Assembly (NCBI GenBank): GCA_013334765.1
Contig: JAAXWW010000001.1
Coordinates: 108,589-172,588 of the forward strand
DNA length: 64,000 bases
DNA from: Candidatus Moraniibacteriota bacterium
GTDB lineage: Bacteria > Patescibacteriota > Minisyncoccia > Moranbacterales > UBA2206
Reading direction: 5' to 3'
In this document: piece by piece, positions 26,512 through 43,024 of the stretch
Position numbering within the stretch: the stretch's first letter is position 1
Layout: every line of letters starts with the position of its first letter
Notes under the pieces: generated by a model
What the model was told of the DNA's origin: nothing
What the model saw: the letters and a program-made list of their open reading frames with translations, nothing else
Databases searched by the model: none
Translations under genes and position numbers: made by a program

Positions 26512-28008
26512 ATGAAACAAGTGATAAAAACAATTATTATGGCAAAATACACTCCTGTGATCGGCATGGAAATACATGTCGAGCTGAAAACTGAATCGAA
26601 GATGTTTTGTGATTCGAAAAACGGAATGGGACTTGAGAAAGAACCCAATGTGAATATCTGTCCGGTCTGCACGGGTCAGCCTGGGACTCTGCCGGTGCCT
26701 AATCGCCAAGCAATCGAGTTTGTCCAGCTGGCTGGGCTCGCGCTCAACTGCAATTTGGCTCTCACGAGCAAATTCGACCGCAAGAACTACTTCTACCCCG
26801 ATCTGCCCAAGGGATACCAGATTTCGCAATACGACCAGCCATTCTGCGAAAATGGGCATTTGGAGGTGCTAGGGAGGAACATCGGAATCACCCGTATTCA
26901 TCTCGAGGAGGACACAGGAAAGCTGGTTCATCCCAAAGGGGTCGATTATACCCTGGTGGACTTCAATCGCGCTGGGGTGCCCCTTATGGAGCTTGTGACG
27001 GAACCGGACATCGAAACCGGAGAGGAAGCCCGCGTGTTCTGCCAGAAGCTGCAGCAGATCTGCCGCTATATCGGGATATCGGATGCTGACATGGAACGTG
27101 GCAATATGCGCTGCGAAGTCAATCTGTCGCTATACAAAGAGGGCGAGGAAAAGCTGTCCGGAACCAAAGTGGAGGTGAAGAATATCAACTCTTTCAAATT
27201 CGTCGAGAAGGCGATCGCCTATGAGATCGAAAGGCAGACCGAAGTTTTGGAAAGAGGGGAAAAGGTCGTTCAGGAGACAAGAGGATGGGACAGCAACAAG
27301 AACGCGACTGTTTCCCAGCGCGCCAAGGAATCGGCGCATGACTATCGGTATTTCCCGGAACCTGACATCCCGCCTTTCAGGTTCGATGCTGCCTATGTGG
27401 ATAGCATCAGGAAGAAGCTGCCCGAGCTTCCCGACCAGAAGGCCAGCCGCTTCGAAAAAGAATATTCGCTTTCCAAGGACGATGTGGCAGTGCTCACTTC
27501 CGAGCGGGAATTGGCAAGCTATTTCGAGGACGTCATGAGCGAACTGGGCGACAAGATCCAAAGCGGAGAATTTTCCTGCCCGATCGACAAAGCCTCGAAG
27601 CTGGCTGCCAACTATGCTATCACGGAACTCAGGAAACATATGATCGTCAATGGGCACGACATCAGGGATGTGAAGATCACTCCGGAAAATTACGCCGAAC
27701 TCATCTGCTTCGTGGCAGAGGGAAAGATCAATTCTTCCGCGGCGCAGGCAGTCCTTCTCGAGATGTATCAGGCCGGAGGCGACCCGTCACAGATCATTTC
27801 AGAAAAAGGGCTGCTTCAGGTGAGCGATGAGGGAGAATTGGAAAAGATCGTCGATGACGTCCTTTCGAAGAATGAGAAATCGGTTGCTGATTTCAAAGCC
27901 GGGAAAGAGAATGCTCTCAAATTCATGATGGGACAAGTGATGGCAGCAACGAAGGGGTCGGCCAATCCGCAGATAGTCATGGAAATCATCAGGAGAAAGC
28001 TGACTTGA
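26512..28008 (+). CDS. gatB: Asp/Glu-tRNA(Asn/Gln) amidotransferase subunit B
   Basis: 'KYTPVIGMEIHVEL' N-terminal signature and GatB-type C-terminal YqeY-like tail; start at 26512 or 26539. Confidence 0.8.
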   Translation: MKQVIKTIIMAKYTPVIGMEIHVELKTESKMFCDSKNGMGLEKEPNVNICPVCTGQPGTLPVPNRQAIEFVQLAGLALNCNLALTSKFDRKNYFYPDLPKGYQISQYDQPFCENGHLEVLGRNIGITRIHLEEDTGKLVHPKGVDYTLVDFNRAGVPLMELVTEPDIETGEEARVFCQKLQQICRYIGISDADMERGNMRCEVNLSLYKEGEEKLSGTKVEVKNINSFKFVEKAIAYEIERQTEVLERGEKVVQETRGWDSNKNATVSQRAKESAHDYRYFPEPDIPPFRFDAAYVDSIRKKLPELPDQKASRFEKEYSLSKDDVAVLTSERELASYFEDVMSELGDKIQSGEFSCPIDKASKLAANYAITELRKHMIVNGHDIRDVKITPENYAELICFVAEGKINSSAAQAVLLEMYQAGGDPSQIISEKGLLQVSDEGELEKIVDDVLSKNEKSVADFKAGKENALKFMMGQVMAATKGSANPQIVMEIIRRKLT

Positions 28009-28128
28009 TAGCGGACATTGCCAAATTTTTCCGTTGTGATATGCTGATTGTAATATGGAGAAAGATTCAAGGAAAAACTCAGAAGTGGGAGTGATGGCAA
28101 AGAATCGCGTTTTCGTTTTTAGGAATCA

Positions 28129-28154
28129 TACCCGCCAATGAGGCGGGTTTTTTG
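28129..28154 (+). terminator. Rho-independent terminator after gatB
   Basis: acccgcc-aatg-aggcgggt followed by TTTTTT. Confidence 0.6.
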
Positions 28155-28185
28155 TTCCTTTGAGAAAAAAAGGGGGGAAGGAGTC

Positions 28186-28404
28186 ATGCTTACACCTAAG
28201 AGGCGGGCACTCAAGGCTTATGGAATCCAGTTCAAGCGCATCTTCGCTTTGCGCGGCAAAGTCGATTATGCAGAAGAGCCTATAGCATCCCTGATAAGGA
28301 AGTGCTTAGAGACTGGCGTTACTTGGGAAGAAATGCATTTGCTGGAAGACAAGATTATGAGCGAATGCCAACAGGGCATAAGCGGATCTCTTGCAACTGC
28401 CTAG
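28186..28404 (+). CDS. Small hypothetical protein (72 aa)
   Basis: Strong RBS aggggggaaggag before the ATG at 28186. Confidence 0.35.
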   Translation: MLTPKRRALKAYGIQFKRIFALRGKVDYAEEPIASLIRKCLETGVTWEEMHLLEDKIMSECQQGISGSLATA

Positions 28405-28431
28405 GTTTCCAGGCATGAAGCGCTTTTTAAA

Positions 28432-28474
28432 AACCCCGGGAACGCTATCGCGCGTTTCCGGGGTTGATTTTTTC
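28432..28474. terminator. Bidirectional terminator (serves minus-strand miaA)
   Basis: aaccccgggaacgc...gcgtttccggggtt stem; T-runs on both strands. Confidence 0.6.
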
Positions 28475-28479
28475 TTGGT

Positions 28480-29409
28480 CTATCCTAGGAATTCCTTAGC
28501 TTCTTTTTCTATGTCAGCATAATCATTCAGCCATAATATCCTCCTGTCTTTCTTGAACCAGGTCATCTGCCTCTTGGCATAATCCTTTTCCGATTGATAG
28601 GTCTTTTCGAACGCTTCGTCTTTTGAAATGCGTCCTTTGAAATATTGGGTTATCCAATAATATCCGAGACCGATTTCTTCCAGTCTTTTCCAGGATACGC
28701 CGCCTTCTAAATGCAGCTTCCCGACTTCCTCGACCATGCCGTTGTCGAATCTTTGCTTGAGCCTTATCCTGATCCTTTCATCAAGAACCTCTTTGGGATG
28801 CGTTATGCCTATCTGGAGGAACTCATAGGATGACTTTTCATTCCCAGTATTGATTGCCGGGACTTTTCCGATAGCTTTGCAGATCTCGATAGCCCGTATG
28901 AGGCGGACCTTGTTTTTGGCATCTATGCTGCTGGCCCGTTCCGGATCGATTTTTTTGAGCTCTTCGAATAATTCAGCGGCGGATTTTTCCGATAGCTTTT
29001 CCCGCAGTTTTGGGTCTGGCTTCACTTCCGGAAATATGGCATTGTCCACGACCGCCTTGATCCAGAAACCGGTTCCGCCGCAGATGATGGGCAGTTTTCC
29101 GCGCTTCAGCATATCCTTGATGATTTTCCCGGTTTTTCTTTTGAACTGGGCGGCGCTCCAGGAGGTCTTCGGACTCAGGATGTCTATCAGGTGATGCGGG
29201 ACATCTTCTGAAATGAAGGTTTTGCTATCCTCATTCCATATCCCAACAACTTTTCCCGTGCCGACATCCATCCCGCGATAGATCTGGCGCGAATCGGCGC
29301 TGATCACTTCACCATCGAATTTCTTCGCTAGGCGAATAGCCGCATCCGATTTTCCTGATGAGGTCGGTCCTAGGATGACGATTATTTTATTGAAATTTTT
29401 CATTGGCAT
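28480..29409 (-). CDS. miaA: tRNA dimethylallyltransferase
   Basis: P-loop 'ILGPTSSGKS' and 'SADSRQIYRGMDVGTGK'. Confidence 0.9.
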   Translation of the reverse strand: MPMKNFNKIIVILGPTSSGKSDAAIRLAKKFDGEVISADSRQIYRGMDVGTGKVVGIWNEDSKTFISEDVPHHLIDILSPKTSWSAAQFKRKTGKIIKDMLKRGKLPIICGGTGFWIKAVVDNAIFPEVKPDPKLREKLSEKSAAELFEELKKIDPERASSIDAKNKVRLIRAIEICKAIGKVPAINTGNEKSSYEFLQIGITHPKEVLDERIRIRLKQRFDNGMVEEVGKLHLEGGVSWKRLEEIGLGYYWITQYFKGRISKDEAFEKTYQSEKDYAKRQMTWFKKDRRILWLNDYADIEKEAKEFLG

Positions 29410-29414
29410 TATGA

Positions 29415-29578
29415 TGTCATCTCGAGCGGAGCATGGCTATTTCGTAGAAATGATCATGCGAAGTCGAGAGATCTGGTTGTGAAATATTCACTAGGTAGAT
29501 TATTGCCAGATTCCTATGCTACCGCTGAAGCTAAGGCGACACGCGGTCGACTTCGCTACGCTTCGCTCGGAATGACAT
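29415..29578. repeat. MITE-like palindromic element, copy B (between miaA and miaB)
   Basis: gtcatctcgagcgg...gcgaagtcgagagatctgg...gctaaggcgacacgcggtcgacttcgctacgcttcgctcggaatgacat. Confidence 0.6.
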
Positions 29579-29585
29579 AAGAAAG

Positions 29586-30869
29586 CTATTTTGTAATAGT
29601 ACCCTCCAGATTCCAGCAATTTGCTTTTACAATTTTCAGTTCTACTAATTTTCCGACTAAGCCTTTTTTATCGCTTTCGAATCTGACATGTTTTCCGGTA
29701 CGGGTCCGGGCGAAATAAATAGCATCATCTTCTTTTCTATCCACTAGAACCTCCATCATTTTCCCGACATATTTCCTGTTGTTGGCAGCCGCGGTTTCTT
29801 TGAGGATTTCATTCAGTGAATTCTCTCGGTATGCCTTTTCTTTTTTGGAAACGTTGTCTTTCATTTTCCACGCGACGGTGCCGGGGCGCGGGGAGAATTG
29901 TCCGAAATATACCATGTCATATTTGACCTTTTTCATGACTTCGGCGGAATCGGCAAATTGCTTCCTGGTTTCTCCCGGGAAGCCGACGATTATGTCGGAG
30001 GTGATGGAATAGGGCGTACCTGGTTTGTATTTCTTGAAGGCCGCCTTTATTTTCTTTGCGAGTGCCAAATATTGTTTCCGGGTATATTTCCTGTTCATCC
30101 TTTCCAGTATCTCGTCATTTCCAGCTTGCAGAGGGAGATGGATCAGTTCCGAGATCTTTTTCGATTTGGCGATGGTTTCGATGAGTTCGTCGGAATAATC
30201 CTTGGGATGGGCGGACATGAAAGACAGCCAGAATTTCCCGGGAATTTTTTCGATATCTTTCAGAAGCTTCGGGAAATCAGTATTTCCGAAATTATATGAG
30301 TTTACGTTCTGACCCAAGAGGATTATTTCTTTGTATCCCTGCCTGATAAGATTCCTGATTTCCTGGATTATATCTTCTGGATCCCTGGAAATCTCACGGC
30401 CTCTGGCATAGGGGACGACGCAATAGGAACAGAAATTGTCGCAGCCGGTCATGATAGGGACGGAAGCGGTGAAGGCGCTTGAATAGGCAGGCGTTATTTT
30501 CAGATAGTCGCTCCCATTGCTTTCTTGGCTGTTCTTCGCACCTATCAATCTTCCTAGTTCTTCAGGGAAGTCTTTTATTTCCAGGAACAGGTCGACTTTG
30601 TCACGGAGCCTTCTTTGGACATCTTTCCGGTTGGCTAGGCAACCGGTGAGGACTATCTTTTTATCCGGATAGGATTCTTTCAAATTGTGGATCTGGCCAT
30701 AAACCCGGTCTTCCGCCATTTGGCGCACTCCGCAAGTGTTGAAAATGACTAAAGAGGCATTTTTTACGTCTAGCGCGGCGCTGAAACCATGCATCTCTAA
30801 AAACCCGGAAATCCGCTCAGAATCGCTATGGTTCATTTGACAGCCGAATGTTTTGATGTAGTATTCCAT
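29586..30869 (-). CDS. miaB: Radical-SAM methylthiotransferase MiaB (tRNA-i6A37 methylthiotransferase)
   Basis: UPF0004 N-domain 'IKTFGCQMN', radical SAM 'CDNFCSYC', C-terminal TRAM; adjacent to miaA. Confidence 0.75.
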   Translation of the reverse strand: MEYYIKTFGCQMNHSDSERISGFLEMHGFSAALDVKNASLVIFNTCGVRQMAEDRVYGQIHNLKESYPDKKIVLTGCLANRKDVQRRLRDKVDLFLEIKDFPEELGRLIGAKNSQESNGSDYLKITPAYSSAFTASVPIMTGCDNFCSYCVVPYARGREISRDPEDIIQEIRNLIRQGYKEIILLGQNVNSYNFGNTDFPKLLKDIEKIPGKFWLSFMSAHPKDYSDELIETIAKSKKISELIHLPLQAGNDEILERMNRKYTRKQYLALAKKIKAAFKKYKPGTPYSITSDIIVGFPGETRKQFADSAEVMKKVKYDMVYFGQFSPRPGTVAWKMKDNVSKKEKAYRENSLNEILKETAAANNRKYVGKMMEVLVDRKEDDAIYFARTRTGKHVRFESDKKGLVGKLVELKIVKANCWNLEGTITK

Positions 30870-30940
30870 TGAACTGGATATGGTTGATAAGTACCTTACA
30901 AGGTATCAAAAATTGATACGATGAACAAGAAGGGGGCACC

Positions 30941-31294
30941 ATGGTTATCCCGCCAACTGGAAAGCATTACGAAAAGCCGCCAGAGGAGCTGAAAAATCCG
31001 AAGATGGGGCTAAGAGAAGTGGAGGACTTCGTCATCTATCTCAGATGCAATGGATCGGTATCCGCCTTCCAGATTGATTTTCGAAATCGCAGATCCGTTA
31101 TCGGTTATGGTCCTGCCACAATCGAAAAAAGCGATGATCCCGAACTTCGGGAAGGTGTGTTGAAATATCTTGACTCTTCAGGAAAGGAGACGTCAGTGAG
31201 CATCGAAGATATCTCAGGCATGTCTGTGCACGACCCGGATTGCAAGTCCGGGGAACATCTTGAAGTTGTCGAGGAAATGCCTGATAACGAGTGA
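30941..31294 (+). CDS. Hypothetical protein (117 aa)
   Basis: ORF with RBS-like aaggggg upstream; no recognised motif. Confidence 0.35.
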   Translation: MVIPPTGKHYEKPPEELKNPKMGLREVEDFVIYLRCNGSVSAFQIDFRNRRSVIGYGPATIEKSDDPELREGVLKYLDSSGKETSVSIEDISGMSVHDPDCKSGEHLEVVEEMPDNE

Positions 31295-31304
31295 TGCTGC
31301 AAAC

Positions 31305-31337
31305 GAGAGGCTGGCGTTCCGTGGAACGCCAGCCTCT
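31305..31337. terminator. Strong 14-bp hairpin between convergent genes (no clean T-run)
   Basis: agaggctggcgttc / gaacgccagcctct. Confidence 0.35.
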
Positions 31338-31353
31338 GATTATTTCTTGCGCC

Positions 31354-33099
31354 CTATTTTTTGCTTTTTATTTCCTCGCTGATCCTGTTTACAAATCCTT
31401 CGATAGCCAGCGCTTCCTGCTCCTTCACTCCTCGTTTTCTCACGGCAACGGTTCCAGACTCTTTCTCTTTTTCTCCGACGACCAGGATGTATGGGGCTTT
31501 CTGCATCTCTGCTTGGCGGATTTTTTTACCGAGCGATTCATCGGAATCATCTATCTCGGCTCTTGCGCCGGACTGAGTCAAGCTGTCTTTGACGGTTTTA
31601 GCATAATCAATGAATTTCTCGCTGACCGGAAGGATAGACACTTGGATGGGGGAGAGCCAAGCCGGGAACGCTCCGGCGTAGTGTTCAATGAGTATTCCCA
31701 TGAACCTTTCGAATGATCCCATAATAGTCCTATGTATCAGGACAGGGGTTTTTTCTTTCCCGTCATTGTCGATATACCGGCAATCGAATTTTAGCGGCAT
31801 CTGGAAGTCGAGCTGGACAGTAGCGCATTGCCATGTTCTTCCAATAGCATCCTTAAGTTGGAAGTCTATCTTTGGTCCATAGAATGCTCCGTCTTTTTCC
31901 TTGAGTCCATAATTGTCTCCATACAGTTCTCCAAGGATTTTCCTGAGGTCATCCTCGGCTTTTTCCCACACCGAAGCCTCTCCCATGAAATCATCCGGAC
32001 GAGTTGAAAGATATGCTTTATATTCGAGCCCGAACGGCTTATATATCTTATCAATCAATCTGATAACATTCTTTATCTCTTCCTCGATCTGTCCTTCGCT
32101 TATGAATATGTGGGCGTCATCCTGGACAAATTGCTGAACCCTTAAGAGGCCGCCGAGCTGGCCGGATTTTTCCTTCCTCGTAATCAGTCCCGGTTCAGCA
32201 TAGCGGATCGGCAGATTCCGATAGGATTTCATCGAGTTATTGTATATCATTATAGCTCCTGGACAATCCATGGGACGGAGGGCGAATTGCCGCTCGTTCT
32301 CTTTCGAATCAATGAAATACATATCATCTTTGTAGTGATCCCAATGTCCGGACTGCTTCCAAACCGATACATCCAGCATTGAAGGCGCAAGAACCATATC
32401 ATACCCGAATTCTTCCTGTGATTCTATCCAGAATTTCTTGAGCTCATTATATATGATCATTCCCTTTGGATGGAAAAATGGCATGCCCGGAGCAATATCG
32501 TGGAAAGAAAACAAATCCAGTTCTTTTCCGATTTTCCTGTGATCCCTTTTCTTGGCTTCTTCGATCATCTCGAGATATTCGTCCAGTTCCTTTTTGCTTT
32601 CGAAAACGACGCCATAGATCCTTTGCATCTGCTTGTTTTTCTCGTCAGCCTTCCAATAGGCGCCGGAAATCTTTGTGAGCTTGATGGCGTCCTTTTTTAT
32701 TTCTCCGGTCGAATCAAGATGGGGACCGGAGCAGAGGTCGACGAATGGCCCGGATTTATAGACGGATATTTTGGCTCCTTCTTTTTCAAGTTCGCCTATC
32801 AGTTCCAGCTTATAGTCCTGGCCGAGTTCCTGGAAATCTTTCCTGGCTTCCTGGGCTGAAATCTCGGCACGCTCGAAAGAATAGTCCTTGTCGATTATTT
32901 CCCGCATCTTGCCTTCCAGGATTTCCAGATCTTCCGGGATGAGGGTTCTCGGCAGGTCGAAGTCATAATAGAAGCCGTTTTCGATAGCAGGCCCGGTTCC
33001 GAATTTGGCTTCGGGAAACATTTCAAGGACAGCCGCCGCCAGGACATGGGCGGCGGAGTGACGGAGGATTTCAAGACGATCGGTTTTTTGCGTATTCAT
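31354..33099 (-). CDS. thrS: Threonyl-tRNA synthetase (lacks the N-terminal TGS domain)
   Basis: Editing-domain 'HSAAHVLAAAV', class II motifs, 'RDHRKIGKELDLF'; 581 aa. Confidence 0.85.
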   Translation of the reverse strand: MNTQKTDRLEILRHSAAHVLAAAVLEMFPEAKFGTGPAIENGFYYDFDLPRTLIPEDLEILEGKMREIIDKDYSFERAEISAQEARKDFQELGQDYKLELIGELEKEGAKISVYKSGPFVDLCSGPHLDSTGEIKKDAIKLTKISGAYWKADEKNKQMQRIYGVVFESKKELDEYLEMIEEAKKRDHRKIGKELDLFSFHDIAPGMPFFHPKGMIIYNELKKFWIESQEEFGYDMVLAPSMLDVSVWKQSGHWDHYKDDMYFIDSKENERQFALRPMDCPGAIMIYNNSMKSYRNLPIRYAEPGLITRKEKSGQLGGLLRVQQFVQDDAHIFISEGQIEEEIKNVIRLIDKIYKPFGLEYKAYLSTRPDDFMGEASVWEKAEDDLRKILGELYGDNYGLKEKDGAFYGPKIDFQLKDAIGRTWQCATVQLDFQMPLKFDCRYIDNDGKEKTPVLIHRTIMGSFERFMGILIEHYAGAFPAWLSPIQVSILPVSEKFIDYAKTVKDSLTQSGARAEIDDSDESLGKKIRQAEMQKAPYILVVGEKEKESGTVAVRKRGVKEQEALAIEGFVNRISEEIKSKK

Positions 33100-33343
33100 A
33101 TTGGTTGAGATTATGGTTTATTGAAATAAAAAATGCCCTAATAACACGGAAGAAACTTGATGTTTCCATATCGAGGTCCAGCTTTCATACTGGACGGTTC
33201 CACTCGATTTCCCTGTATTATTCGGGCGCTTTCTTTGATCCTCTCGCGGATCGGGACGGAAGCTCAGCAGGTGGTGGGGCTGCGTCAAGGCTTCATTCGG
33301 TTTTCTAGTTGCTATTATACATTATTGATATGGATAAGTCAAT

Positions 33344-33373
33344 TTGACATCGCATTCTGTTTTTGCTTATATA
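33344..33373 (+). promoter_or_regulatory. Near-consensus sigma70 promoter (TTGACA-17/18-TATATA) upstream of the GC-rich gene
   Basis: ttgaca at 33344-33349; ttatat/tatata at 33367-33373. Confidence 0.4.
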
Positions 33374-33503
33374 AGGTCAGTGTTTTAAAGTTCTTTTATT
33401 AATTTGAACGGAGGATAATGTCATGTATTAGCTGTCTTGGAAGAACGGCGTGTTGTTGGGTAATGACAAATTAAACCGAAGTGAGAAAGAGCGAGGTTGA
33501 GTC

Positions 33504-34109
33504 ATGCGAAAAATGCTCATGCCCCTCTTCGCCGCGATGGCCGTCATGCTGCTGCTTTGTAGCATGGCCATCGCTGCTCCGCCGCAAGTTGCGGGCGGAG
33601 CCGGAGCCATGGCCGTGCATGCCACTCCCCAATTGGGCGGTGGTGGCAGCAATGCTCTTCAGCCCGACTACAAAACGCTTGCCTGCATCGACTGCAGGTC
33701 CGATTCGCTCGGGGGCATTTACAAGGGCGAAACTACCCTGACCATGGCTGAGCCGTTCGGCACCCACACCAAGCCGTTGACGACAGCCAAGTTGTACGAC
33801 ACCGACAAGCTCGCCGCATCCGCGCAACAAGGCGTACCCGCCGCCATCGCCCGGACCGTGACCACCTTCGATACCGCAAGGCCCCCTTTCCTGGGCGCCT
33901 CGAAACATGACCCCGGCGTTGCGGAGGTCGCTCCGCTCAAGATGCCGGGCCGCGTTGCCTCCGTCATCGTACCTGGTCTTCACCATCAGCAGCCGCAAGC
34001 CCTGGCCGTAACGACCATCGAGGTGGCGCACTGCGACATCTTGCCGCAGTCGGCCCCCATGTCTATCGTGGGCTTCAACGGCAGCGCGGACGGTCACTTC
34101 GTTACCTAG
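33504..34109 (+). CDS. Secreted protein of unknown function in a GC-rich island
   Basis: Signal peptide 'MRKMLMPLFAAMAVMLLLCSMAIAAP'; RBS gaggt 8 nt upstream; about 62% GC against about 42% background. Confidence 0.55.
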   Translation: MRKMLMPLFAAMAVMLLLCSMAIAAPPQVAGGAGAMAVHATPQLGGGGSNALQPDYKTLACIDCRSDSLGGIYKGETTLTMAEPFGTHTKPLTTAKLYDTDKLAASAQQGVPAAIARTVTTFDTARPPFLGASKHDPGVAEVAPLKMPGRVASVIVPGLHHQQPQALAVTTIEVAHCDILPQSAPMSIVGFNGSADGHFVT

Positions 34110-34165
34110 GCACCACATCGCCAGGGCAAGTGACTGTAGGAGCAACTGCTCTAACTCTCTCCCTT

Positions 34166-34203
34166 GGAGAGGATAATCTCGCTGATTATCCTCTCCTTTT
34201 TTA
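34166..34203 (+). terminator. Rho-independent terminator
   Basis: ggagaggataatc...attatcctctcc stem followed by TTTTTT. Confidence 0.65.
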
Positions 34204-34260
34204 TTGCTTCGATTCGCATGATATAATGAATGCACTAAACAAAATTCATTTCAAAAAAAT

Positions 34261-35049
34261 ATGGAACAGGAAACAAATCAGAGCGAGGAAAAAAATTGGA
34301 AGAAATACAAGATCGCAATCAGGTTTTTCGGCATGCTGATTCTGGGCGCGATAGTCATCGTTTCCATCCTGCGCGAGAGGATCGTCAATCCGCCGCAGAA
34401 CAGGGTGACGGTTGCCGGCGAGGGGAGGGTGGAATATTCTCCCGATCAGGCGACCATAACTCTCGGCGTTCAGGTCTTCAAGGCTCCGACAGCGCAGGAT
34501 GCCTTGAATCAGCTCAACGACAAGATGAAAAGCGTCACTTCTTCAATAAGGAGCGCCGGAGTGGACGACAAGGATATCAAGACCGATACGTATTCGTTGA
34601 GCCCGCAATACGATTATGCTGACGGGACAAGCACCGTTTCCGGATATAACGCCAATCAGAATCTTGAAATCAAAGCCAAAGATATCAAGAAGAACAGCGC
34701 GCTTGTCGCGAGCATCATCCAGGCCGCTTCATCCCAGGGGGTGAACCGGGTACTAGGCGTTGATTTCGATACGTCTGATCTGGAAAGCTTCAAGCAAGAG
34801 GCGAGAGTGAAAGCTATCGAAGATGCCAAGAAGAAAGCGGATGAGCTTTTCAAGTCAGCCGGAATGCGGGAAGGAAAAGTCGTCGGGTGGCATGAGAATT
34901 CAGTGAACATTCCATGGACATATGGCAGGAATTATGATGCGATGGGCGGATCTCTTACGGATTCGGCTAAGGCGGTATCAGTTCCGGAAGTGCCATCAGG
35001 AACCCAAGAAGTGGTCGTCGAAGTCGGCGTGGATTATGCCGCGAACTAG
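34261..35049 (+). CDS. SIMPL-domain (DUF541 / BP26-like) protein
   Basis: N-terminal TM then 'VTVAGEGRVEYSPDQATITLGVQV', characteristic of the SIMPL/DUF541 family. Confidence 0.65.
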   Translation: MEQETNQSEEKNWKKYKIAIRFFGMLILGAIVIVSILRERIVNPPQNRVTVAGEGRVEYSPDQATITLGVQVFKAPTAQDALNQLNDKMKSVTSSIRSAGVDDKDIKTDTYSLSPQYDYADGTSTVSGYNANQNLEIKAKDIKKNSALVASIIQAASSQGVNRVLGVDFDTSDLESFKQEARVKAIEDAKKKADELFKSAGMREGKVVGWHENSVNIPWTYGRNYDAMGGSLTDSAKAVSVPEVPSGTQEVVVEVGVDYAAN

Positions 35050-35116
35050 ATATATATGAAATCGAAAATAAGAAGCGATACGCAAGTATCGCTTTTTTTG
35101 ATTATGATATGGATAT

Positions 35117-35292
35117 CGTCATCCTGAGCGGAATGACGAAACGATAGCGGAGGAATGAAGTCGAAGGATCTAGCAATGAAAATTTCTATGATTGTATATG
35201 AGGGAAGATTTCTGTGCCGCCGCTAAAGCTTTGGCGACACGCGGTCGACTTCGCTTCCTGCCTGCTGGCAGACGCTTCGCTCAAAATGACAT
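35117..35292. repeat. MITE-like palindromic element, copy C (between the SIMPL gene and the dnaE 3' end)
   Basis: cgtcatcctgagcgg...gaagtcgaaggatct...ggcgacacgcggtcgacttcgcttcctgcctgctggcagacgcttcgctcaaaatgacat. Confidence 0.6.
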
Positions 35293-35295
35293 TTT

Positions 35296-38200
35296 TTATG
35301 CACTGACTTTGACTTTCACCTCAGGCGCTATCAAGCTCAATTCCTCTTCGATTTTTTCGGAAAGGGCTATGGAATAATTGGTCTTCACTTTCTTGCCGCT
35401 TATCCATAGGTATATTTTCACGTCTCCCTTTTCGCAGTTGGCGAAATAGTCTGAAAGGCTCTTGATGGCAGAGGGATCGATGCTTGCCGGGAGGACCACT
35501 TCCGCGGAGGCTTCCGGCGCTTCCGATTTCGGAACGAAAGCGTCGCCGTTAGCTTTCCTGGTTTCCAGGATGCGGCGGAACCTTTCGACTTCCTGATTGT
35601 TGACCGCGCTGGCGCTGTCGACCAGGAATTTCGCGCTTCCGTCCTTGTCGGATATCTTTCCTGACGCGAGGATTATCTTGTCTTCCACCCAAAGGGAAGC
35701 TGATTCTTCAAGGATCTTGGGGAAAACGATGAACTCTATGGATGACTCCGTGTCTTCTATGGTCACGAACATCATGGCTTTGCCGGTTTTAAGATATATT
35801 TTCTTGGTCTTGGTTATGATGCCTCCGAGATTGACGCTCTTTCCAGCGAGATGGCTGCCGATATTCCTGAGCGGAACGGCCATATGCTCGAAATATTCCT
35901 TGTATTCATGCATGGGGTGATCGCTGATGTATAGTCCCATGAGTTCCTTTTCCCAGGCGAGGCGCTGTTTTTTGTCAGCAGGAATGGCCGCGACCAGCTG
36001 GATTTCCGGCAAGGTAGCCTCGATGTCGCCGAAAAGGCTTATCTGGGCTGAGTTCCTGACATTATTAAAGTTCTTGATGTGGGTGATGATGTTTTCGACG
36101 GATTGGATTATCTGGTTCCTTTCTCCCATCATATCGAGCGCTCCGACTTTCGCCAGCGCCTCGATGGATTTCTTGTTCAAATCTTTCGTGTCGACTCTTT
36201 CCGCCAGGTCGCGCAGGCTTTTGAATTTCCCGTTCCTCTTCCTTTCCTCAACGATTTCATGCGCGACCGTGCGGCCGACATTCTTGATGGCATTCAGTCC
36301 GAACCTGATCTTGTTCCGCCGGCTGGCGGATTCCTCCTCGCCTTTTATGACCGCGAATTCCTCGAAGCTCTCATTCACGTCGGGTGGAAGGACTTCGATG
36401 CCCATTTCACGGCATTCCGAAACCTCGATTGCCACGCGATCGATATCGTCCTGATCGGAAGTGAGAAGGGCTGCCATGAATTCGGCAGGGAAATGAGCTT
36501 TGAGATAGGCGGTCTGATAGCCGATAAGGCCATAGCAGGCGGCATGCGAACGGTTGAATCCGTATCCGGCGAAAGGTTCGATATATGCGAAGACTTCTTC
36601 TGCCACTTTCTTGGTGATGCCGTTGGCGACGCATCCCTCGACGAATTTTATCTTCTGCTCCTTGATGAGATCGAAAATCTTCTTGCCGACCGCTTTCCTG
36701 AGAACGTCAGCTTCGCCGAGCGTGAATCCGGCAAGCGCCTGAGCGATCTGCATGATCTGCTCCTGATATACTGCTACGCCATAGGTTTTCCCCAGGATCG
36801 ATTCCAGTTTCGGATGGAGATAGGTTATTTTCTTTTCGCCGTGCTTCCTGGCAATAAAGTCTGGAATCCAATCCATCGGACCCGGGCGATAGAGGGCGAC
36901 CATAGCGATGACATCTTCAAGGTCGTTGGGTTTCAAGAGTTTCAGATATCTTTTCATGCCGGAACTTTCAAGCTGGAACACTCCGGTGGTCTGTGCTTTC
37001 TGAAGAAGCTCGAAAGCCTTCTCATCATCAAGAGGTATCTTGTCTATATCAACGTCTATGCCTTTCGTTTTCTTGACTATTCGGAGGGTGTTCTGGATGA
37101 TGGTGAGATTCTTGAGTCCCAAAAAGTCCATTTTGAGAAGGCCGATCTTTTCCACGAAACTGGATTTGGTCGATGAGGAATATTGTGTCACGCAGCCTTC
37201 CCCTTTGCCTTGGATTTTCTGAAGAGGAGAATATTCCGTGACGGGTTCCGGCGTGATGACTACTCCGCAAGCATGCATGCCGGCATGGCGCACCACTCCT
37301 TCGAGCCGCTTGGCGCTGTCGATCAGCTTCTTGGCATCGGGACCGCTGTCGTAGAGGTCTTTGAATTCCTTCACTTCTTCCAATGCTTTCGAGATGGAAG
37401 AGAACATCGGGATCATCTGGGAAGTCTTGTTGCAGAAATCATAGGGGAGACCGAGAGCCCGTCCGGTGTCGCGGATGGCAGCGCGGGCTGCCATGGTTCC
37501 GAAGGTGATGATCTGGGCGACATGGTCATTGCCATATCTCCTTCTGACATAATCCAGAACGTCGTCGCGCCTGTCGTCAGCGAAGTCCATATCGACATCG
37601 GGCATGGAGATCCTTTCCGGATTGAGGAACCTTTCGAACAGAAGGTCATACTTGATCGGATCCATGTTGGTGATGCCGACAAGATAGGACACGAAGCTTC
37701 CGGCGGCGCTTCCGCGTCCCGGTCCGGTGACGATGCCGTTGTCCTTGGCCCAGTTCACGAAATCCTGGACGATAAGGAAGTATGACGCATAGCCGGTCTT
37801 CTCGATGACCGAAAGCTCGTATTCCATGCGGTCCCTCTGTTCTTTGGTGATATCCTGGTCGCCGTATCTTTTTATGAGCCCTTCTTCGCACATCTGTCTC
37901 AGGAAGCTCATAGGAGTATGACCATCGGGAACATCGAAATGGGGGAGCTTGGTTTCGCCGAGCTTCAGTTTGAACTCGCAAAGGTCGACTACTTTCTGGG
38001 TATTGGAAAGAACCTCCGGATTATCCGGGAAACCGGCTGCCACTTCCTCCGGGCTCCTGAGAGACAGATTGAAATCCATAAGGTTCATGCGGTTGGTCTC
38101 ATCCACTTTGCGGTTGGTCTGCACGCAAAGGAGGATATCCTGCGCCGATGCGTCTTCCTTGCGGACATAATGGACATCGCAGGTCGCGACTACCAGCAGG

Positions 38201-38808
38201 TCAAGCTCTTTAGCTAGCTTGAAAATTCCTTTATTGGCGATTTTCTGGGGCTCGAAATTGGGATGATCCTGCACTTCCAGAAAGAAGCTGCCTTCATCGA
38301 AAATATCCTTGTATTCCAGTGCAAGATTCTTGGCTTTCTCGTAGTCTCCAGTAATAATGGCGACAGGAATTTCTCCCTCAGCGCACGCGCTCAGTCCCAC
38401 GAGCCCTTTAGCATATTGCCGCAGGACCTTGCGGTCGATGCGCGGCTTGTAATAGAACCCGTCGAGGTGGGCGATGGAAACCAGCTTCATGAGGTTGTGA
38501 TAGCCTTCCTCGTTCTTGACCAGCAGGATGAGATGATGGCGCTTCCTGTCTTCGGCAGTCGGATTCTTGCTGTGAAGGTCGTTGGCGGTTATATACATCT
38601 CGCAACCGATGATCGGCTTGATTCCTTTTTCTTTGGCTTTGATGAAAAGCTCCACTGCGCCATACATGACCCCGTGGTCGGTGAGGGCGATCGAATCCAT
38701 GCCGAGCTCCTTGGCGCGGTCAATAAGGTCGTCGATCTTCCCGAGGCCGTCGAGCAGGGAATAGTGGGAATGGACGTGGAGGTGGGTGTATTTCAATTGT
38801 TCAGGCAT
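35296..38808 (-). CDS. dnaE: DNA polymerase III alpha subunit
   Basis: PHP domain 'LHVHSHYSLLDG', polymerase core, OB-fold; 1170 aa. Confidence 0.9.
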   Translation of the reverse strand: MPEQLKYTHLHVHSHYSLLDGLGKIDDLIDRAKELGMDSIALTDHGVMYGAVELFIKAKEKGIKPIIGCEMYITANDLHSKNPTAEDRKRHHLILLVKNEEGYHNLMKLVSIAHLDGFYYKPRIDRKVLRQYAKGLVGLSACAEGEIPVAIITGDYEKAKNLALEYKDIFDEGSFFLEVQDHPNFEPQKIANKGIFKLAKELDLLVVATCDVHYVRKEDASAQDILLCVQTNRKVDETNRMNLMDFNLSLRSPEEVAAGFPDNPEVLSNTQKVVDLCEFKLKLGETKLPHFDVPDGHTPMSFLRQMCEEGLIKRYGDQDITKEQRDRMEYELSVIEKTGYASYFLIVQDFVNWAKDNGIVTGPGRGSAAGSFVSYLVGITNMDPIKYDLLFERFLNPERISMPDVDMDFADDRRDDVLDYVRRRYGNDHVAQIITFGTMAARAAIRDTGRALGLPYDFCNKTSQMIPMFSSISKALEEVKEFKDLYDSGPDAKKLIDSAKRLEGVVRHAGMHACGVVITPEPVTEYSPLQKIQGKGEGCVTQYSSSTKSSFVEKIGLLKMDFLGLKNLTIIQNTLRIVKKTKGIDVDIDKIPLDDEKAFELLQKAQTTGVFQLESSGMKRYLKLLKPNDLEDVIAMVALYRPGPMDWIPDFIARKHGEKKITYLHPKLESILGKTYGVAVYQEQIMQIAQALAGFTLGEADVLRKAVGKKIFDLIKEQKIKFVEGCVANGITKKVAEEVFAYIEPFAGYGFNRSHAACYGLIGYQTAYLKAHFPAEFMAALLTSDQDDIDRVAIEVSECREMGIEVLPPDVNESFEEFAVIKGEEESASRRNKIRFGLNAIKNVGRTVAHEIVEERKRNGKFKSLRDLAERVDTKDLNKKSIEALAKVGALDMMGERNQIIQSVENIITHIKNFNNVRNSAQISLFGDIEATLPEIQLVAAIPADKKQRLAWEKELMGLYISDHPMHEYKEYFEHMAVPLRNIGSHLAGKSVNLGGIITKTKKIYLKTGKAMMFVTIEDTESSIEFIVFPKILEESASLWVEDKIILASGKISDKDGSAKFLVDSASAVNNQEVERFRRILETRKANGDAFVPKSEAPEASAEVVLPASIDPSAIKSLSDYFANCEKGDVKIYLWISGKKVKTNYSIALSEKIEEELSLIAPEVKVKVSA

Positions 38809-39024
38809 ATTTTTGCATGTATGGATTGGATAAAATAAAAACCACTATCTGAATGAATAGCAGTTCAAGCGAATTTTGAATCGGATGTTTTCATATTCTT
38901 TCGTTTCCTCATAGCCCGGAGCTAAGTCGCTAGGTTTTGCAGGAAAGGTTAAGTGGTTTGATTATAGCATGAGTCGGGGAAAACCGATACTGGATAAAAG
39001 ATACTCAAGGAGTATACTGAGGAT

Positions 39025-39744
39025 ATGGCTAGAATAATCGCAAATTTCGATTTGGAAAAAGATCTTCTTGAAAAGGGGTATGGCCTTCTGATAGGCATCG
39101 ACGAGGCGGGAAGGGGGCCGCTGGCAGGGCCGGTGGTGGCCGCGGTGGCGTGTCTCAAAAATGAGAACTGGGATTTCATTTCGGAAATCGAATCTTCAGA
39201 GAACGACAAGGACAAATGGCATCTGGTGCGGGATTCCAAGACTTTGTCAGAGCGCCAGCGCGACATGGCATTCGATTTCGTCAGGGAAAATTTCCACGTC
39301 GGCATCGGCATTTGCGATCATGAGACGATTGACCGGATGAATATCTTGGAAGCGACATTCCTGGCTATGAAAAAAGCGCTTACGGAATTTTCCAATATCA
39401 CGAAAGAAATGTCCGGCGAGAGGATACTTCTGGTTGACGGGAACAAGGAAATCCCAAGTATCAGCATGGAGCAGAAAGCGATCGTTTCCGGAGACAAACT
39501 AGTGAAGTCAATCGCTGCCGCTTCGATAATCGCCAAAGTTACCAGGGACCGCATAATGCTTCTGGCTGAGGAGAAATATCCGCACTACGCTTTCAAGAAA
39601 CATAAAGGATACGGAACGAAGCTTCATTTCGAACTGCTTAGGAAGTTCGGGCCTTGCGAGATTCACCGCAAGAGCTTCGATCCAGTGAAAAAGGCAATAA
39701 ATATCCAAGACAGGATGCTCAGTGCCAGGGGAGGAGGATATTGA
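39025..39744 (+). CDS. rnhB: Ribonuclease HII
   Basis: 'GIDEAGRGPLAGPVV' catalytic motif. Confidence 0.85.
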   Translation: MARIIANFDLEKDLLEKGYGLLIGIDEAGRGPLAGPVVAAVACLKNENWDFISEIESSENDKDKWHLVRDSKTLSERQRDMAFDFVRENFHVGIGICDHETIDRMNILEATFLAMKKALTEFSNITKEMSGERILLVDGNKEIPSISMEQKAIVSGDKLVKSIAAASIIAKVTRDRIMLLAEEKYPHYAFKKHKGYGTKLHFELLRKFGPCEIHRKSFDPVKKAINIQDRMLSARGGGY

Positions 39745-39845
39745 ACCTGATCGAGCTGTTTCTAACTTGCATTTTCCTGCAAGCTGGCATAATATATGAC
39801 CAGCTCTTTTTGTGTTATTTAAACCTTCTTAAGGAGGAAAATCGA

Positions 39846-40568
39846 ATGGAAGGGTATATGGATATGAGAGAGTTGGTGGCCACTGTGATTATCGGAAGCG
39901 GCGCATTACGTTTCGGACAGTTCCGGCTCAAGCTTCATGAGAGTAACCCGGAGGCGCCTCTTTCTCCAGTGTATCTCAATCTTCGCACGTCTTTTCACCC
40001 CGATCCGAATAAGCGCGGACCGTTGACGGAGGCTCATTGCAGTATAATTGGTCGGGCCTTGGCAGACATGACGGTCCGCCTTCCGAATTTCCAGGGATTT
40101 GTTGCTGGTTTGCCATACGCGGCCGATCCTTTTGTTGGTGCGGTATCCAATATGCCTGAGTGGTGCGGGCAGATAAGATTTGTCAGTCTGGCAAAATATA
40201 TTGATCCGGAATCCGGTAATCGCTGCATCGTTCCCGAGCGGAAAAACAGCTATCCGGTGGGTCGGAATGTGGTTCTTTGGGATGATCTCATAACCATGGC
40301 CGATTCCAAAATTGAGGCTGCCAACAGTCTCATGCTCATGGGTTGTGATGTGACCGACATCATTGTTCTCGTTGATTGTCAGCAAGGAGGGTCCGAAAAG
40401 CTCGTCAACATGGGTTTTCGCGTTCACTCGATACTGCCCTTTCTCAATTACCTTCTTCCATTTGCCCGTCAAACCGGCTATGTCGAGAAGGATGATTGGG
40501 ACAGGTGCTGCGAATATTTCGGCAGCCAAGGCCATCCCTTATCCGACAATCCCACCGCTTTCGTTTGA
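39846..40568 (+). CDS. pyrE: Type I phosphoribosyltransferase, orotate-PRTase-like
   Basis: 'FGQFRLKLHESNPEAPLSPVYLNLR' (OPRT-like N-terminus) and PRPP loop 'VVLWDDLITMADS'; RBS aaggagg before the ATG at 39846; elevated GC. Confidence 0.45.
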   Translation: MEGYMDMRELVATVIIGSGALRFGQFRLKLHESNPEAPLSPVYLNLRTSFHPDPNKRGPLTEAHCSIIGRALADMTVRLPNFQGFVAGLPYAADPFVGAVSNMPEWCGQIRFVSLAKYIDPESGNRCIVPERKNSYPVGRNVVLWDDLITMADSKIEAANSLMLMGCDVTDIIVLVDCQQGGSEKLVNMGFRVHSILPFLNYLLPFARQTGYVEKDDWDRCCEYFGSQGHPLSDNPTAFV

Positions 40569-40669
40569 ATGCGCGGCTGTTTCCCCTCTCCCCGGACTGT
40601 TCTTACAGTCCGGGGATTTTTTGTCTAGTCAAATTTGCCTTTATTCAGGCTCTGATATAAGATGAAATC

Positions 40670-42262
40670 ATGAAAAACAAGCTCAAAAAAGCAATAGAAA
40701 GCGCCGTTTCAAGCCTCAAGGAAAAATATGGGGCGGATTTCGATCATCTCGAAATCGAGGTCGATTATCCGAAAAACGAAGCGTTCGGGGACTATACGAC
40801 CAACGTCGCCATGATGCTTGGGAAAGTATTGAAAAAGAACCCGATGGAAGTGGCAGAAGAGATTGTCAAAGAGCTGGATGGAAAAATCGACGGTTTTGAA
40901 GCGCCTGAAATAGTGAAGCCGGGATATATCAATTTTCGCTTGGCAGAAGGACGGTTGCAGGAATTGGTTGGCGAAATATCAGAACTCGGAAAAAAATATG
41001 GCGAGAGCGGAATAGGCAATGGGATAAGAATAAATAACGAATTCATATCAGCCAATCCGACCGGACCGCTTCATCTTGGAAACGGACGCGGAGGATTTTT
41101 CGGCGATACTCTTTCAAGGGTTTTCAGGAAAGCTGGATATGAAGTGGTAAATGAATATTATCTGAATGATGCCGGAGAGCAGGTGATGAAGCTGGGGCAT
41201 AGCGTCCTTAAGGATTCCGAGGCAGCCTATGCAGGAGAATATATAGATAATCTTCATGAAAAATTGGGGAATATTTCAGATGTCAGGGAGGCCGGAGAAA
41301 AAGCAGCCAAAGAAATCATTGATAATATAATCAAGAGGATCGTAAAAGAGAAAATGGGCATCCATTTTGATTTGTGGTTTTCAGAAAAAAAACTTCAGGC
41401 TGATGGATATGTCGATAAGGCGATAGAAATATTCAAGGAAAAGGATCTGACTTACGAAAAAGACGAAGCCCTCTGGCTCAAGACGACTGAATTCGGGGAT
41501 GACAAGGATCGTGTGCTTATCAAAAAGGATGGACAGAAGACATATTTCGCATCTGATTGCGGCTATATTCTCAACAAGATGGAAAGGGGATTCGATGTGA
41601 CGATTGAGACCTGGGGAGCGGATCACCATGGATATATCGCGAGGTTCAAGGCTGCAGCCGAAGCTCTCGGATTCAAGGGCGAACTCAGGTTCGTCATTGT
41701 TCAGATGGTCAGGCTCGTGAAAGACGGCAAGGAAGTGAGGATGAGCAAGCGTGCCGGAAATGTCGTTTATATTGACGAGCTTATTGATAAGATTGGAATC
41801 GATGTGGCAAGATTCTTTTTCCTGATGTATTCATGCGATACTCACATGAATTTCGATCTGGGTCTTGCCGAGGAAAGATCGCAGAAAAACCCGGTCTATT
41901 ATGTCCAATACGCCCACGCCAGGATTTCAAGCATTCTCGGAAAGGCGGAAGATGGGAAATTTGGAAACGGAAAAGCGGACCTAGGATTGCTTAAGCATGA
42001 AAAGGAATTAGATCTTATTCGCGAGCTCAACAAATTTCCGGAACTTATCGAGGAGGTGGCAAAGAGCTATGATGTTCACAAGTTTCCGTATTATGCCATC
42101 AAGATCGCTGACAGATTCCATTCTTTCTATAACGACTGCCGAGTGATCGACGAAGAGAATCCGGCTTTGACCACTGCCAGGCTGGAGCTTATAAGATCCG
42201 CTAAGACCGTTCTCGGGGAAGTGCTTGGAATGTTGGGAGTCAGCGCGCCGGAGAAGATGTAG
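40670..42262 (+). CDS. argS: Arginyl-tRNA synthetase
   Basis: Class I 'ANPTGPLHLGNGRGG' (HIGH-type), DALR anticodon-binding C-terminus 'YYVQYAHARISSIL'. Confidence 0.85.
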   Translation: MKNKLKKAIESAVSSLKEKYGADFDHLEIEVDYPKNEAFGDYTTNVAMMLGKVLKKNPMEVAEEIVKELDGKIDGFEAPEIVKPGYINFRLAEGRLQELVGEISELGKKYGESGIGNGIRINNEFISANPTGPLHLGNGRGGFFGDTLSRVFRKAGYEVVNEYYLNDAGEQVMKLGHSVLKDSEAAYAGEYIDNLHEKLGNISDVREAGEKAAKEIIDNIIKRIVKEKMGIHFDLWFSEKKLQADGYVDKAIEIFKEKDLTYEKDEALWLKTTEFGDDKDRVLIKKDGQKTYFASDCGYILNKMERGFDVTIETWGADHHGYIARFKAAAEALGFKGELRFVIVQMVRLVKDGKEVRMSKRAGNVVYIDELIDKIGIDVARFFFLMYSCDTHMNFDLGLAEERSQKNPVYYVQYAHARISSILGKAEDGKFGNGKADLGLLKHEKELDLIRELNKFPELIEEVAKSYDVHKFPYYAIKIADRFHSFYNDCRVIDEENPALTTARLELIRSAKTVLGEVLGMLGVSAPEKM

Positions 42263-42286
42263 ATATTGAGAAAATAATTTATTGCC

Positions 42287-42595
42287 ATGCAGGAATTCTA
42301 CGAACACATAACTTTGGAAGAAGCCAGCAAACTGGCTTTAGAGAATAAGGATAATAAGGATTTCATCATCCTGGACGTGAGGACGCCGCAGGAACTTATG
42401 GGCGGGGTGATCGGGGAACCGGTCAATATCGACATCTATGACTCTGAGTTCGCTGCGAAGATCGGAGCGCTCGACAAAGAGAAGACCTATTTGGTCTATT
42501 GCCGGAGCGGCAACCGCAGCAAGGCGGCCGCGGGACTTATGAAACAGCTGGGCTTCAAGAAGATATATGAAGTCGACAGGGGAATCATGGGCTAG
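42287..42595 (+). CDS. Rhodanese-domain sulfurtransferase
   Basis: Active-site loop 'CRSGNRS'; 102 aa. Confidence 0.75.
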   Translation: MQEFYEHITLEEASKLALENKDNKDFIILDVRTPQELMGGVIGEPVNIDIYDSEFAAKIGALDKEKTYLVYCRSGNRSKAAAGLMKQLGFKKIYEVDRGIMG

Positions 42596-42735
42596 CATTC
42601 AACCTTGCCAAAAATAGGATATTATGCTAGAGTTGCACCAATAAAGCCACTCTGCTGGCTAAATAGTTCTTTGCGTCATATAGCTGCTTTTTGTTTTTCC
42701 CGACGAATCCTTCTAAATTTTTTGGAGGGCAAGAC

Positions 42736-42933
42736 ATGTCTGGATCTGAGATTGATGGCAAATCCGGCGGCAAAAGGTCGTTCAAACGTACCAAGAATTT
42801 CCTCTTGAATATGTATCGGGCAGGCCGGAACGGTTGCAGTATGCTGGCGGACAAATACCGTGGCAAGCTGAACGATCTTGGCTTGACCGATGAGGAGATT
42901 TTCGAGGAACTTGACCGACTTGCTGGTGCTTAG
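42736..42933 (+). CDS. Small hypothetical protein
   Basis: Short ORF; terminator follows directly. Confidence 0.3.
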   Translation: MSGSEIDGKSGGKRSFKRTKNFLLNMYRAGRNGCSMLADKYRGKLNDLGLTDEEIFEELDRLAGA

Positions 42934-43000: not shown

Positions 43001-43024
43001 TCATTTTCAGGTATTATGTATTTG

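Follow-up and report, generated by a model that had tools for sequence, protein, structure and literature searches.

The 64,000-nucleotide (nt) stretch of DNA analyzed here, called the window, belongs to a Candidatus Moranbacteria metagenome-assembled genome (candidate phyla radiation, CPR/Patescibacteria) and contains an open reading frame (ORF) of 606 nt (33504..34109, + strand) that encodes 201 amino acids (aa); the contig is of 306 kb, and NCBI gives the ORF as hypothetical protein HGB08_00835. No other 606-nt stretch of the 64 kb is as extreme as this ORF in GC content, dinucleotide signature, or 4-mer usage, and among about 15 billion public proteins no relative of its product could be detected. 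We regard it as a compositionally atypical orphan gene, of a kind already known, that is most likely a foreign gene or a fast-turnover accessory gene.

The orphan ORF lies between thrS (31354..33099, - strand), assigned by the tRNA_SAD, tRNA-synt_2b, and HGTP_anticodon domains of its product, and a gene that encodes a SIMPL domain (34261..35049, + strand; PF04402, E = 7.5e-43). A previous sequence-only reading of the window had placed a 606-nt ORF between thrS and a SIMPL gene, and both the ORF and, by their domains, its two neighbors were recovered here.

Composition and continuity of the GC-rich island

The sequence-only reading had described a sharp GC-rich island at 33480-34110, with about 62% GC against about 42% around it, and had left it to sliding-window GC and tetranucleotide analysis to decide whether the GC differs from the background. 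Both analyses set the island apart. The ORF has a GC content of 63.4-63.5% and the whole window of 46.5%, i.e., the value given for the island holds, but 42% was too low for the background. Along sliding windows of 606 nt (mean 46.5%, standard deviation 3.8%), the top value of the 64 kb is 64.4%, at 33521 (z = 4.5). In steps of 60 nt, GC passes 0.5 at about 33480-33510 and drops under 0.5 past about 34150, and thus the island extends about 40 nt beyond the ORF into non-coding DNA on its 3' side. The first 41 nt past the stop codon have 58.5% GC, compared with 35.8 ± 11% after host stops, and a post-stop stretch as GC-rich as this one is found in 4.5% of the host genes. In GC-normalized dinucleotides, the island is more distant from the rest of the window than any other part of it (0.191 vs. 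0.090 ± 0.029 for host windows), and the 4-mer correlation with the host is -0.05, whereas it is 0.71 ± 0.10 for all other windows.

The codon usage is also unlike that of the rest of the window, as had been claimed. The GC contents at the first, second, and third codon positions (GC1, GC2, and GC3) are 0.63, 0.51, and 0.76, respectively, and the GC3 of host genes is 0.54 ± 0.07 (maximum 0.65). Once corrected for amino acid content, the GC3 excess is +0.171, which exceeds that of all 176 host windows of 201 codons (maximum 0.165). Codons ending in C dominate, with frequencies in the ORF and the host, respectively, of 0.58 and 0.27 for GCC, 0.63 and 0.25 for GGC, 0.65 and 0.30 for ACC, and 0.41 and 0.15 for CCC. 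The encoded protein is enriched in Ala (15.4% vs. 7.1% in the host), Pro (8.5% vs. 3.8%), and Thr (8.5% vs. 3.9%), and it is depleted in Lys, Glu, Asn, and Ile.

A composition that breaks sharply at both ends, in a gene found in one sample only, could also be produced by an assembly chimera or by a contaminating fragment joined into the Moranbacteria contig, as the sequence-only reading had considered. The Logan assembly of run SRR11449211 contains a 31.7-kb contig of which 17,326 bases were compared (window positions 26784-44109); they are identical to the window, both junctions included, and this independent assembly makes a chimera unlikely. Moreover, two false joins would be needed, exactly at the start codon and in the 3' untranslated region (UTR) and not at arbitrary places, and the ORF is framed by a host-type promoter, Shine-Dalgarno (SD) sequence, and terminator. 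The contig of a close relative, L091, can be aligned with the window over the AT-rich terminator and over the SIMPL promoter that follows it. We therefore abandoned this explanation as very improbable.

The orphan gene, its expression signals, and its product

The signals that surround the orphan ORF are the following, with the basis of each assignment in brackets.

33342..33314, - strand: thrS promoter, TTGACT-17-TATAAT (consensus scan)
33344..33373, + strand: orphan-gene promoter, with -35 TTGACA (33344-33349), an 18-nt spacer, and -10 TATATA (33368-33373) (read from the sequence)
33410..33431, + strand: SD sequence GGAGGA (33410-33415), N7, and the mini-ORF ATG TAT TAG (33423-33431) (read from the sequence)
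33493..33497, + strand: SD-like GAGGT, 6 nt before the orphan ATG (read from the sequence)
33504..34109, + strand: orphan ORF, 201 aa, GC3 0.76 (ORF list, periodicity, and codon log-odds)
33504..33575, + strand: predicted Sec signal peptide, aa 1-24 (hydrophobicity and shuffles; cleavage site judged by eye)
34110..34165, + strand: 3' UTR, GC-rich over its first 41 nt (GC count after the stop)
34166..34202, + strand: intrinsic terminator, GGAGAGGATAATC-tcgct-GATTATCCTCTCC then TTTTTT (stem, loop, and T-run; aligned to L091)
33471..34235, - strand: antisense ORF, 254 aa, in the same codon phase as the orphan (ORF list)
34219..34227, + strand: SIMPL extended -10 promoter, TGATATAAT, outside the orphan unit (aligned to relatives)

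The thrS and orphan units are driven from back-to-back -35 boxes on opposite strands. A TTGACA-17-TATATA promoter had been proposed for the orphan gene; the TTGACA box is exact, but the spacer is of 18 nt and the -10 box, TATATA, ends in A instead of the conserved T, for which reason the promoter was missed by the consensus scan. The strong terminator that had been proposed was found as a 13-bp stem (34166-34178 paired with 34184-34196) with a 5-nt loop and the TTTTTT run, and it works in the + direction only.

Each strand has an open frame of over 200 codons, as had been noticed, with 201 aa on the + strand and 254 aa on the - strand. The three codon phases of the orphan ORF differ in GC (chi2 = 26.9, p = 1.5e-6), in the order GC3 > GC1 > GC2, and under two codon models the + frame has the best codon log-odds among the six frames. 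Against a zero-order background, the host codon table gives -21 bits for the + frame and -32 for the antisense frame, and the table of a GC-richer relative gives +13 and -10, respectively. GC-rich genes normally show GC3 above GC1, but in the antisense frame GC1 is larger than GC3. The antisense ORF has no homolog and no Pfam or NCBIfam match, and its transcript would need to cross the + strand terminator. We judge that the + ORF is a real gene and that the antisense frame is a by-product of its GC-rich, GNC-type codon pattern.

The N-terminus of the protein has the n/h/c layout of a signal peptide (MRK / MLMPLFAAMAVMLLLCSM / AIA), with cleavage expected before APP. The maximum of its Kyte-Doolittle profile over 15 residues is 2.53, at residue 5, and elsewhere in the protein the profile does not exceed 1.42; an N-terminus this hydrophobic appears in only 0.16% of residue shuffles (p about 0.002). 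The charged n-region, the hydrophobic h-region, and the small residues at -3 and -1 are those expected of a predicted Sec (type I) signal peptide. No lipobox was found in it, the sole candidate being L-L-L-C19, in which Leu at -1 is unfit, and thus it does not fit a type II lipoprotein signal. The predicted mature protein has about 177 aa, among which Ala, Gly, Thr, and Pro are abundant; it contains 7 His and 3 Cys. AlphaFold models helix only in the signal-peptide part. The seven His residues, together with a CxxC motif at residues 61-64, hint at a possible metal or disulfide chemistry. From the predicted signal peptide we infer that the product would leave the cell interior for the surface or the surrounding medium. 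At a guess, it might be an accessory protein, extracellular or surface-bound, on which core functions do not depend.

The absence of a recognizable domain in this Ala/Gly/Thr/Pro-rich signal-peptide protein, part of the sequence-only reading, agrees with our searches. Pfam, NCBIfam, and PHROGs, searched with the ORF and the other five frames, gave nothing but two noise matches in PHROGs (E 0.13-0.19), and no PDB sequence matched the orphan at E <= 10. It matched only itself in a word-indexed search of 5.8 billion clusters, in a full phmmer search of 1.84 billion representatives, and in tblastn searches (E <= 10) of all of the about 100 loci collected here. No homolog was found in back-translated scans of viral and metagenome contigs, nor in plasmids (blastn and tblastn) or phages (tblastn). 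The protein similarity search that had been proposed as a check has thus yielded no relative in any of the collections searched. The 90% clusters of both ThrS and the orphan protein are singletons.

With both strands open, no homolog and hence no evidence of purifying selection, and no confident AlphaFold fold, the island might be regarded as inert foreign GC-rich DNA that makes no protein and in which a long ORF persists because stop codons are scarce. We give this only a small chance. The three-base periodicity and the order GC3 > GC1 > GC2 oppose it, and we estimate that a given frame of random DNA with 63% GC would remain open for 201 codons in about 0.4% of the cases. The N-terminal signal peptide is not expected by chance (p about 0.002), and the SD, promoter, and terminator are placed exactly at the ends of the ORF. 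In addition, the terminator stem of L091 has stayed perfect through four paired changes, which implies selection on transcription coming from the side of the orphan.

A large structured non-coding RNA in which the ORF is incidental was also considered, since the island has its own promoter and terminator, lacks protein homologs, and, when 33480-34200 is folded as a single piece, reaches a z of about -5.8 on both strands (20 shuffles, terminator hairpin included). However, the ORF alone gives z = -2.75 on the + strand and -2.56 on the - strand (100 dinucleotide shuffles), i.e., its folding is not strand-specific, and it is not exceptional when compared with 20 host coding windows (-0.38 ± 1.05, minimum -2.58). 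No relevant Rfam family was found at E <= 1, and codon periodicity and a signal peptide are not expected of an RNA gene. The 100 shuffles and the host coding controls led us to reject the structured-RNA idea, which we hold to be hardly credible.

The GGAGGA sequence, a strong SD, and the mini-ORF, of two codons, lie inside the 5' UTR of about 125 nt of the orphan gene. This GGAGGA-N7-ATG TAT TAG element may be, speculatively, the remnant of the start of a former resident gene, or else a small upstream ORF. A Cys-rich frame of 18 codons, MSCISCLGRTACCWVMTN (33418-33474), overlaps the mini-ORF and begins only 3 nt past GGAGGA. Among the 15 genes called at 26784-44109, SD sequences are absent from most of the housekeeping genes (thrS, SIMPL, dnaE, miaA, miaB, argS, and ileS), but several small hypothetical genes and the orphan do carry them.

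The thrS-SIMPL slot and the origin of its cargo

In seven Moranbacteria relatives (L005, L057, L094, L095, L098, L099, and L100), whose SIMPL proteins are 44-56% identical to that of the window, thrS and SIMPL are divergent and adjacent, separated by a gap of 99-460 nt that contains only the thrS leader and the two promoters, without an intervening ORF and without a GC island. Since the two genes stand back to back in these more distant relatives, the segment from about 33343 to about 34205 appears as a lineage-specific insertion. The extended -10 element of SIMPL is the downstream edge of this insertion, and the sequence TGnTATAAT upstream of SIMPL aligns among the window, L005, L057, L091, and L092.

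The closest relatives are L091 (SIMPL 81% identical, DnaE in the same 90% cluster) and L092 (SIMPL 60% identical), and both have a terminator hairpin at the matching position upstream of the SIMPL promoter. The 13-bp stem of L091 differs at four positions, each of them compensated on the opposite arm, suggesting that termination on the + strand is under selection in L091 too. The conservation of this terminator at SIMPL identities of 81% and 60% indicates that the transcription unit, although not necessarily its present cargo, is not recent, and that the slot predates the unameliorated composition of the orphan. What the unit of L091 and L092 carries lies beyond the ends of their contigs, which stop 0-34 nt upstream of the hairpin (L091 1-60, L092 1-35). 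These ends at the slot may reflect a population heterogeneity of the upstream cargo; alternatively, the end of the L092 contig may be a palindrome artifact, its hairpin being a 24-nt perfect palindrome. The contig of another relative, L097, stops inside SIMPL, and a second metagenome scan with SIMPL retrieved only relatives with an identity of 40% or less.

A different cassette of two small genes occupies the space between thrS and SIMPL in L065 (4844-6000) and L093 (2600-3600), with its own TTGACA promoter, SD sequences, and terminator, and with a normal GC content. The second gene of the cassette is homologous between L065 and L093 (32% identity, E = 3e-6) and has CxxC motifs. The cassette proteins show no similarity to the orphan ORF or its flanks.

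The simplest way to reconcile a foreign-looking composition with host-type signals is a horizontally acquired cargo in a pre-existing unit, to which we give roughly an even chance. According to this proposal, the slot would have arisen by insertion where the promoters of thrS and SIMPL stand back to back, and the unit would have occupied it since before the window and L091 lineages split. A foreign fragment, made of the coding DNA and about 40 nt past the stop and coming from a GC-richer, as yet unsequenced organism, would then have inserted into the existing unit, or replaced its cargo, and inherited the host-type signals. The island has the anatomy of a real gene transcribed separately, in which a sigma-70-type promoter and an SD precede the 201 codons and a rho-independent terminator follows them, and the Sec-type signal peptide would send a mature protein of about 177 aa to the surface or the medium. 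Foreign origin and cargo replacement, which we infer from the sequence rather than observe, seem the most likely course of events.

Several results weigh against this proposal. No homolog or donor was found, and so it is composition that carries the case for a foreign origin. When the protein was recoded with the synonymous usage of the host, the expected GC was 57.9 ± 1.1% and the expected GC3 0.59; the observed excess is large against sampling noise (z = 5.2), but about two-thirds of the GC excess (from 46.5 to 57.9%) comes from amino acid content. The remaining third is synonymous choice, specifically of C-ending codons. Compared with the variation between genes, the GC3 residual (z = 2.7) is barely past the host maximum. 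A gene acquired before the window, L091, and L092 separated should have lost much of its foreign GC3. Around the island only chance-level repeats of 11-12 nt were found, with no target-site duplication, and there is no integrase, mobile-element gene, or tRNA near the orphan, the neighbors being housekeeping genes and the nearest tRNAs 15 kb away. The AlphaFold2 model made from the single sequence has a predicted local distance difference test (pLDDT) score of 34 for the full length and 31 for the mature part, too low for a fold comparison to be meaningful. Finally, the dinucleotide distance between the orphan and the GC-rich relative L092 is 0.235, which is no match.

L092 has nevertheless a bearing on the donor. 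Its GC content is 56%, with GC3 of 0.70-0.79 in SIMPL, dnaE, and rnhB, and if its codon table were applied to the orphan, 65.1% GC and a GC3 of 0.80 would be predicted. The orphan GC3 of 0.76 is thus within the range of L092 housekeeping genes, and there is no need to invoke a remote donor; another Patescibacterium could be the source, given that a related lineage attains this GC3. No donor is identified in this way, because the dinucleotide signature of L092 does not match in spite of the fitting GC3. Horizontal gene transfer of Patescibacteria has been reported to be frequent and dominated by transfers among Patescibacteria (PMC12455944). Within the Moranbacteria clade, GC is 56% in L092, 48% in L091, 46.5% in the window, and 36-44% in more distant relatives.

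Of the recent acquisition from a high-GC donor that had been suggested, there remains the foreign-looking composition. The absence of a donor or homolog, the terminator conserved in relatives, the share of the GC excess that stems from amino acid content, and an L092 GC3 that suffices all weaken the case for the rest. We consider a horizontal origin plausible and the word recent doubtful.

The same results can be read as those of a native, fast-evolving, lineage-specific gene whose GC derives from an Ala/Gly/Pro/Thr-rich protein and a gene-specific codon bias, with no transfer. We think this unlikely, although it has to be taken seriously. Host codon usage applied to this protein already goes most of the way in GC, the GC3 residual is near the host maximum, and the synonymous codons of the ORF, when scored with host usage, have a log-likelihood of -1.158 per codon, which the host itself reaches (minimum -1.176). 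The unit is old, with its terminator kept through compensatory changes in L091 and present in L092, signatures of mobility were not found, and orphans are common in the window, such as the neighbors of 117 aa and 240 aa, which have no family. However, a 4-mer correlation of about zero and the most extreme dinucleotide distance of the window are difficult to ascribe to a native gene, as are a preference for C-ending codons unlike that of the host for Ala, Gly, Thr, and Pro, and a GC-richness that reaches into the 3' UTR. No other gene of the 64 kb comes near it in composition.

A bolder proposal, which we hold to be rather improbable, is that the thrS-SIMPL gap of this Moranbacteria clade is a fixed expression slot with a fast turnover of cargo, heterogeneous in populations, and that its present cargo was captured from a GC-richer organism. 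The slot would lie between an upstream promoter of the host and a downstream terminator kept by selection, and its exported-protein cargo could possibly derive from the episymbiont's own host or from another Patescibacterium. Heterogeneity of the cargo in natural populations would explain why the L091 and L092 contigs end 0-34 nt above the terminator, and the GGAGGA-ATG-TAT-TAG stub would be the cut-off start of the cargo that came before.

The island occurs only once in the 64-kb window. A diversity-generating retroelement target was discarded, since the 64 kb hold no second copy of the ORF and the genes called within 17 kb include no reverse transcriptase.

As for the wider gene order, dnaE followed by thrS on the same strand is widespread in Patescibacteria, with gaps of about 1-8 nt in L009, L013, and L014, and it is also found in L008. 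In the window, where these genes lie in 31354-38808, dnaE and thrS are set apart by 2.2 kb of genes on the opposite strand (SIMPL and the orphan).

The thrS leader and comparison with known systems

The leader of thrS (33140-33315, - strand) is a conserved structured element that has hallmarks of a T-box and appears specific for tRNA-Thr. Its Stem I is a short, K-turn-like hairpin of 9 bp with ACC-A, a Thr codon plus a purine, in the terminal loop. The specifier ACC-A (ACC-G in L019 and L032) is in the hairpin loop of 11 of the 13 leaders aligned, and the other two, of L040 and L020, also carry ACC but are poorly aligned there. The sequence GUGGAACC is invariant and forms a bulge inside a covarying antiterminator helix, and a long-range helix is followed by a U-run. 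In the alignment of 13 leaders, 90.5% of the cells pair and 15 of the 31 pairs show compensatory change, whereas shuffles gave a mean of 7.4, none of 500 reaching 15, and slid controls gave 3-8. A covariance model (R1) built from this alignment located the element ahead of thrS in some 35 loci of Patescibacteria, which besides the window include L005, L007, L017, L019, L028, L032, L033, L039, L040, L057, L093, and about 25 more, and it had no match in Firmicutes loci.

By its sequence, this leader would have the specifier followed by a purine, the UGGN bulge in the antiterminator helix, and the competing terminator with a U-run that are expected of a T-box. It lacks a long Stem I with the distal tRNA-elbow platform, and the Rfam T-box model RF00230 has no match to it at E <= 10, nor any match at gathering score in 11 relatives. 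An ultrashort Stem I has been described for the translational T-boxes of Actinobacteria, and transcriptional T-boxes are held to require the distal platform (PMC7583486). The short-Stem-I model of TBDB was used on Actinobacteria and otherwise only on class I matches with a truncated Stem I (PMC7778990). The Stem I of the thrS leader resembles the ultrashort one of actinobacterial T-boxes (PMC7583486), but the leader differs from them in combining it with an apparent transcription terminator, in CPR bacteria. This T-box-like leader may interest RNA specialists more than the orphan gene. At the other end of thrS, the gap between an ORF of 117 aa and the end of thrS (31215-31342, + strand), which are convergent, gave the Rfam matches Ms_IGR-8 (E = 0.02) and asX1 (E = 0.29); these are far under the gathering scores and are probably just a terminator-like hairpin.

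The orphan alone is real but not extraordinary, and its value is mainly that of a well-documented example. It also carries a caution, i.e., that a striking GC island can owe most of its excess to amino acid content. If the foreign origin is true, the locus would be a minimal case of a streamlined CPR genome gaining a single exported protein amid host expression signals, the source of the orphan would lie outside everything sequenced so far, and the case would bear on how episymbiotic ultrasmall bacteria renew their surface and secreted repertoire.

When compared with known systems, the island resembles the OLE, GOLLD, ROOL, and HEARO RNAs in that some 650 nt of GC-rich DNA, flanked by a dedicated promoter and terminator, stand out from a genome of lower GC. 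It differs from them in having no Rfam match, unexceptional folding, codon periodicity, and an intact ORF with a signal peptide.

Genes that are orphan or acquired tend to have a lower GC content than the genome around them. As in the horizontally acquired single-gene islets of the Lawrence-Ochman amelioration framework, the deviation in GC, codons, and oligonucleotides is confined to one gene, and this gene has no known function. At the syntenic site it is missing in the seven relatives with 44-56% identical SIMPL proteins, and the contigs of L091 and L092 end before any upstream gene. Unlike in those islets, the orphan is GC-richer than the host, no donor, mobility gene, or target-site repeats were found, and the flanking expression signals are host-like, with a terminator conserved in relatives.

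The orphan is also similar to the hypothetical secreted or surface proteins of CPR/Patescibacteria, which are small, lineage-restricted, provided with a predicted signal peptide, free of Pfam domains, and located in a housekeeping neighborhood. It departs from them in composition, since the other domain-less neighbors in the window are ordinary in this respect and the orphan is the sole outlier in 64 kb.

Integration hotspots carry different accessory cargo at one site between core genes across lineages. The thrS-SIMPL gap is unlike them in its tiny scale (less than 1 kb and one gene) and in that no integrase or recombination site was recognized, but it is like them in its contents: it is empty in seven relatives, holds the two-gene cassette in L065 and L093, and has a unit with a terminator in L091, L092, and the window itself.

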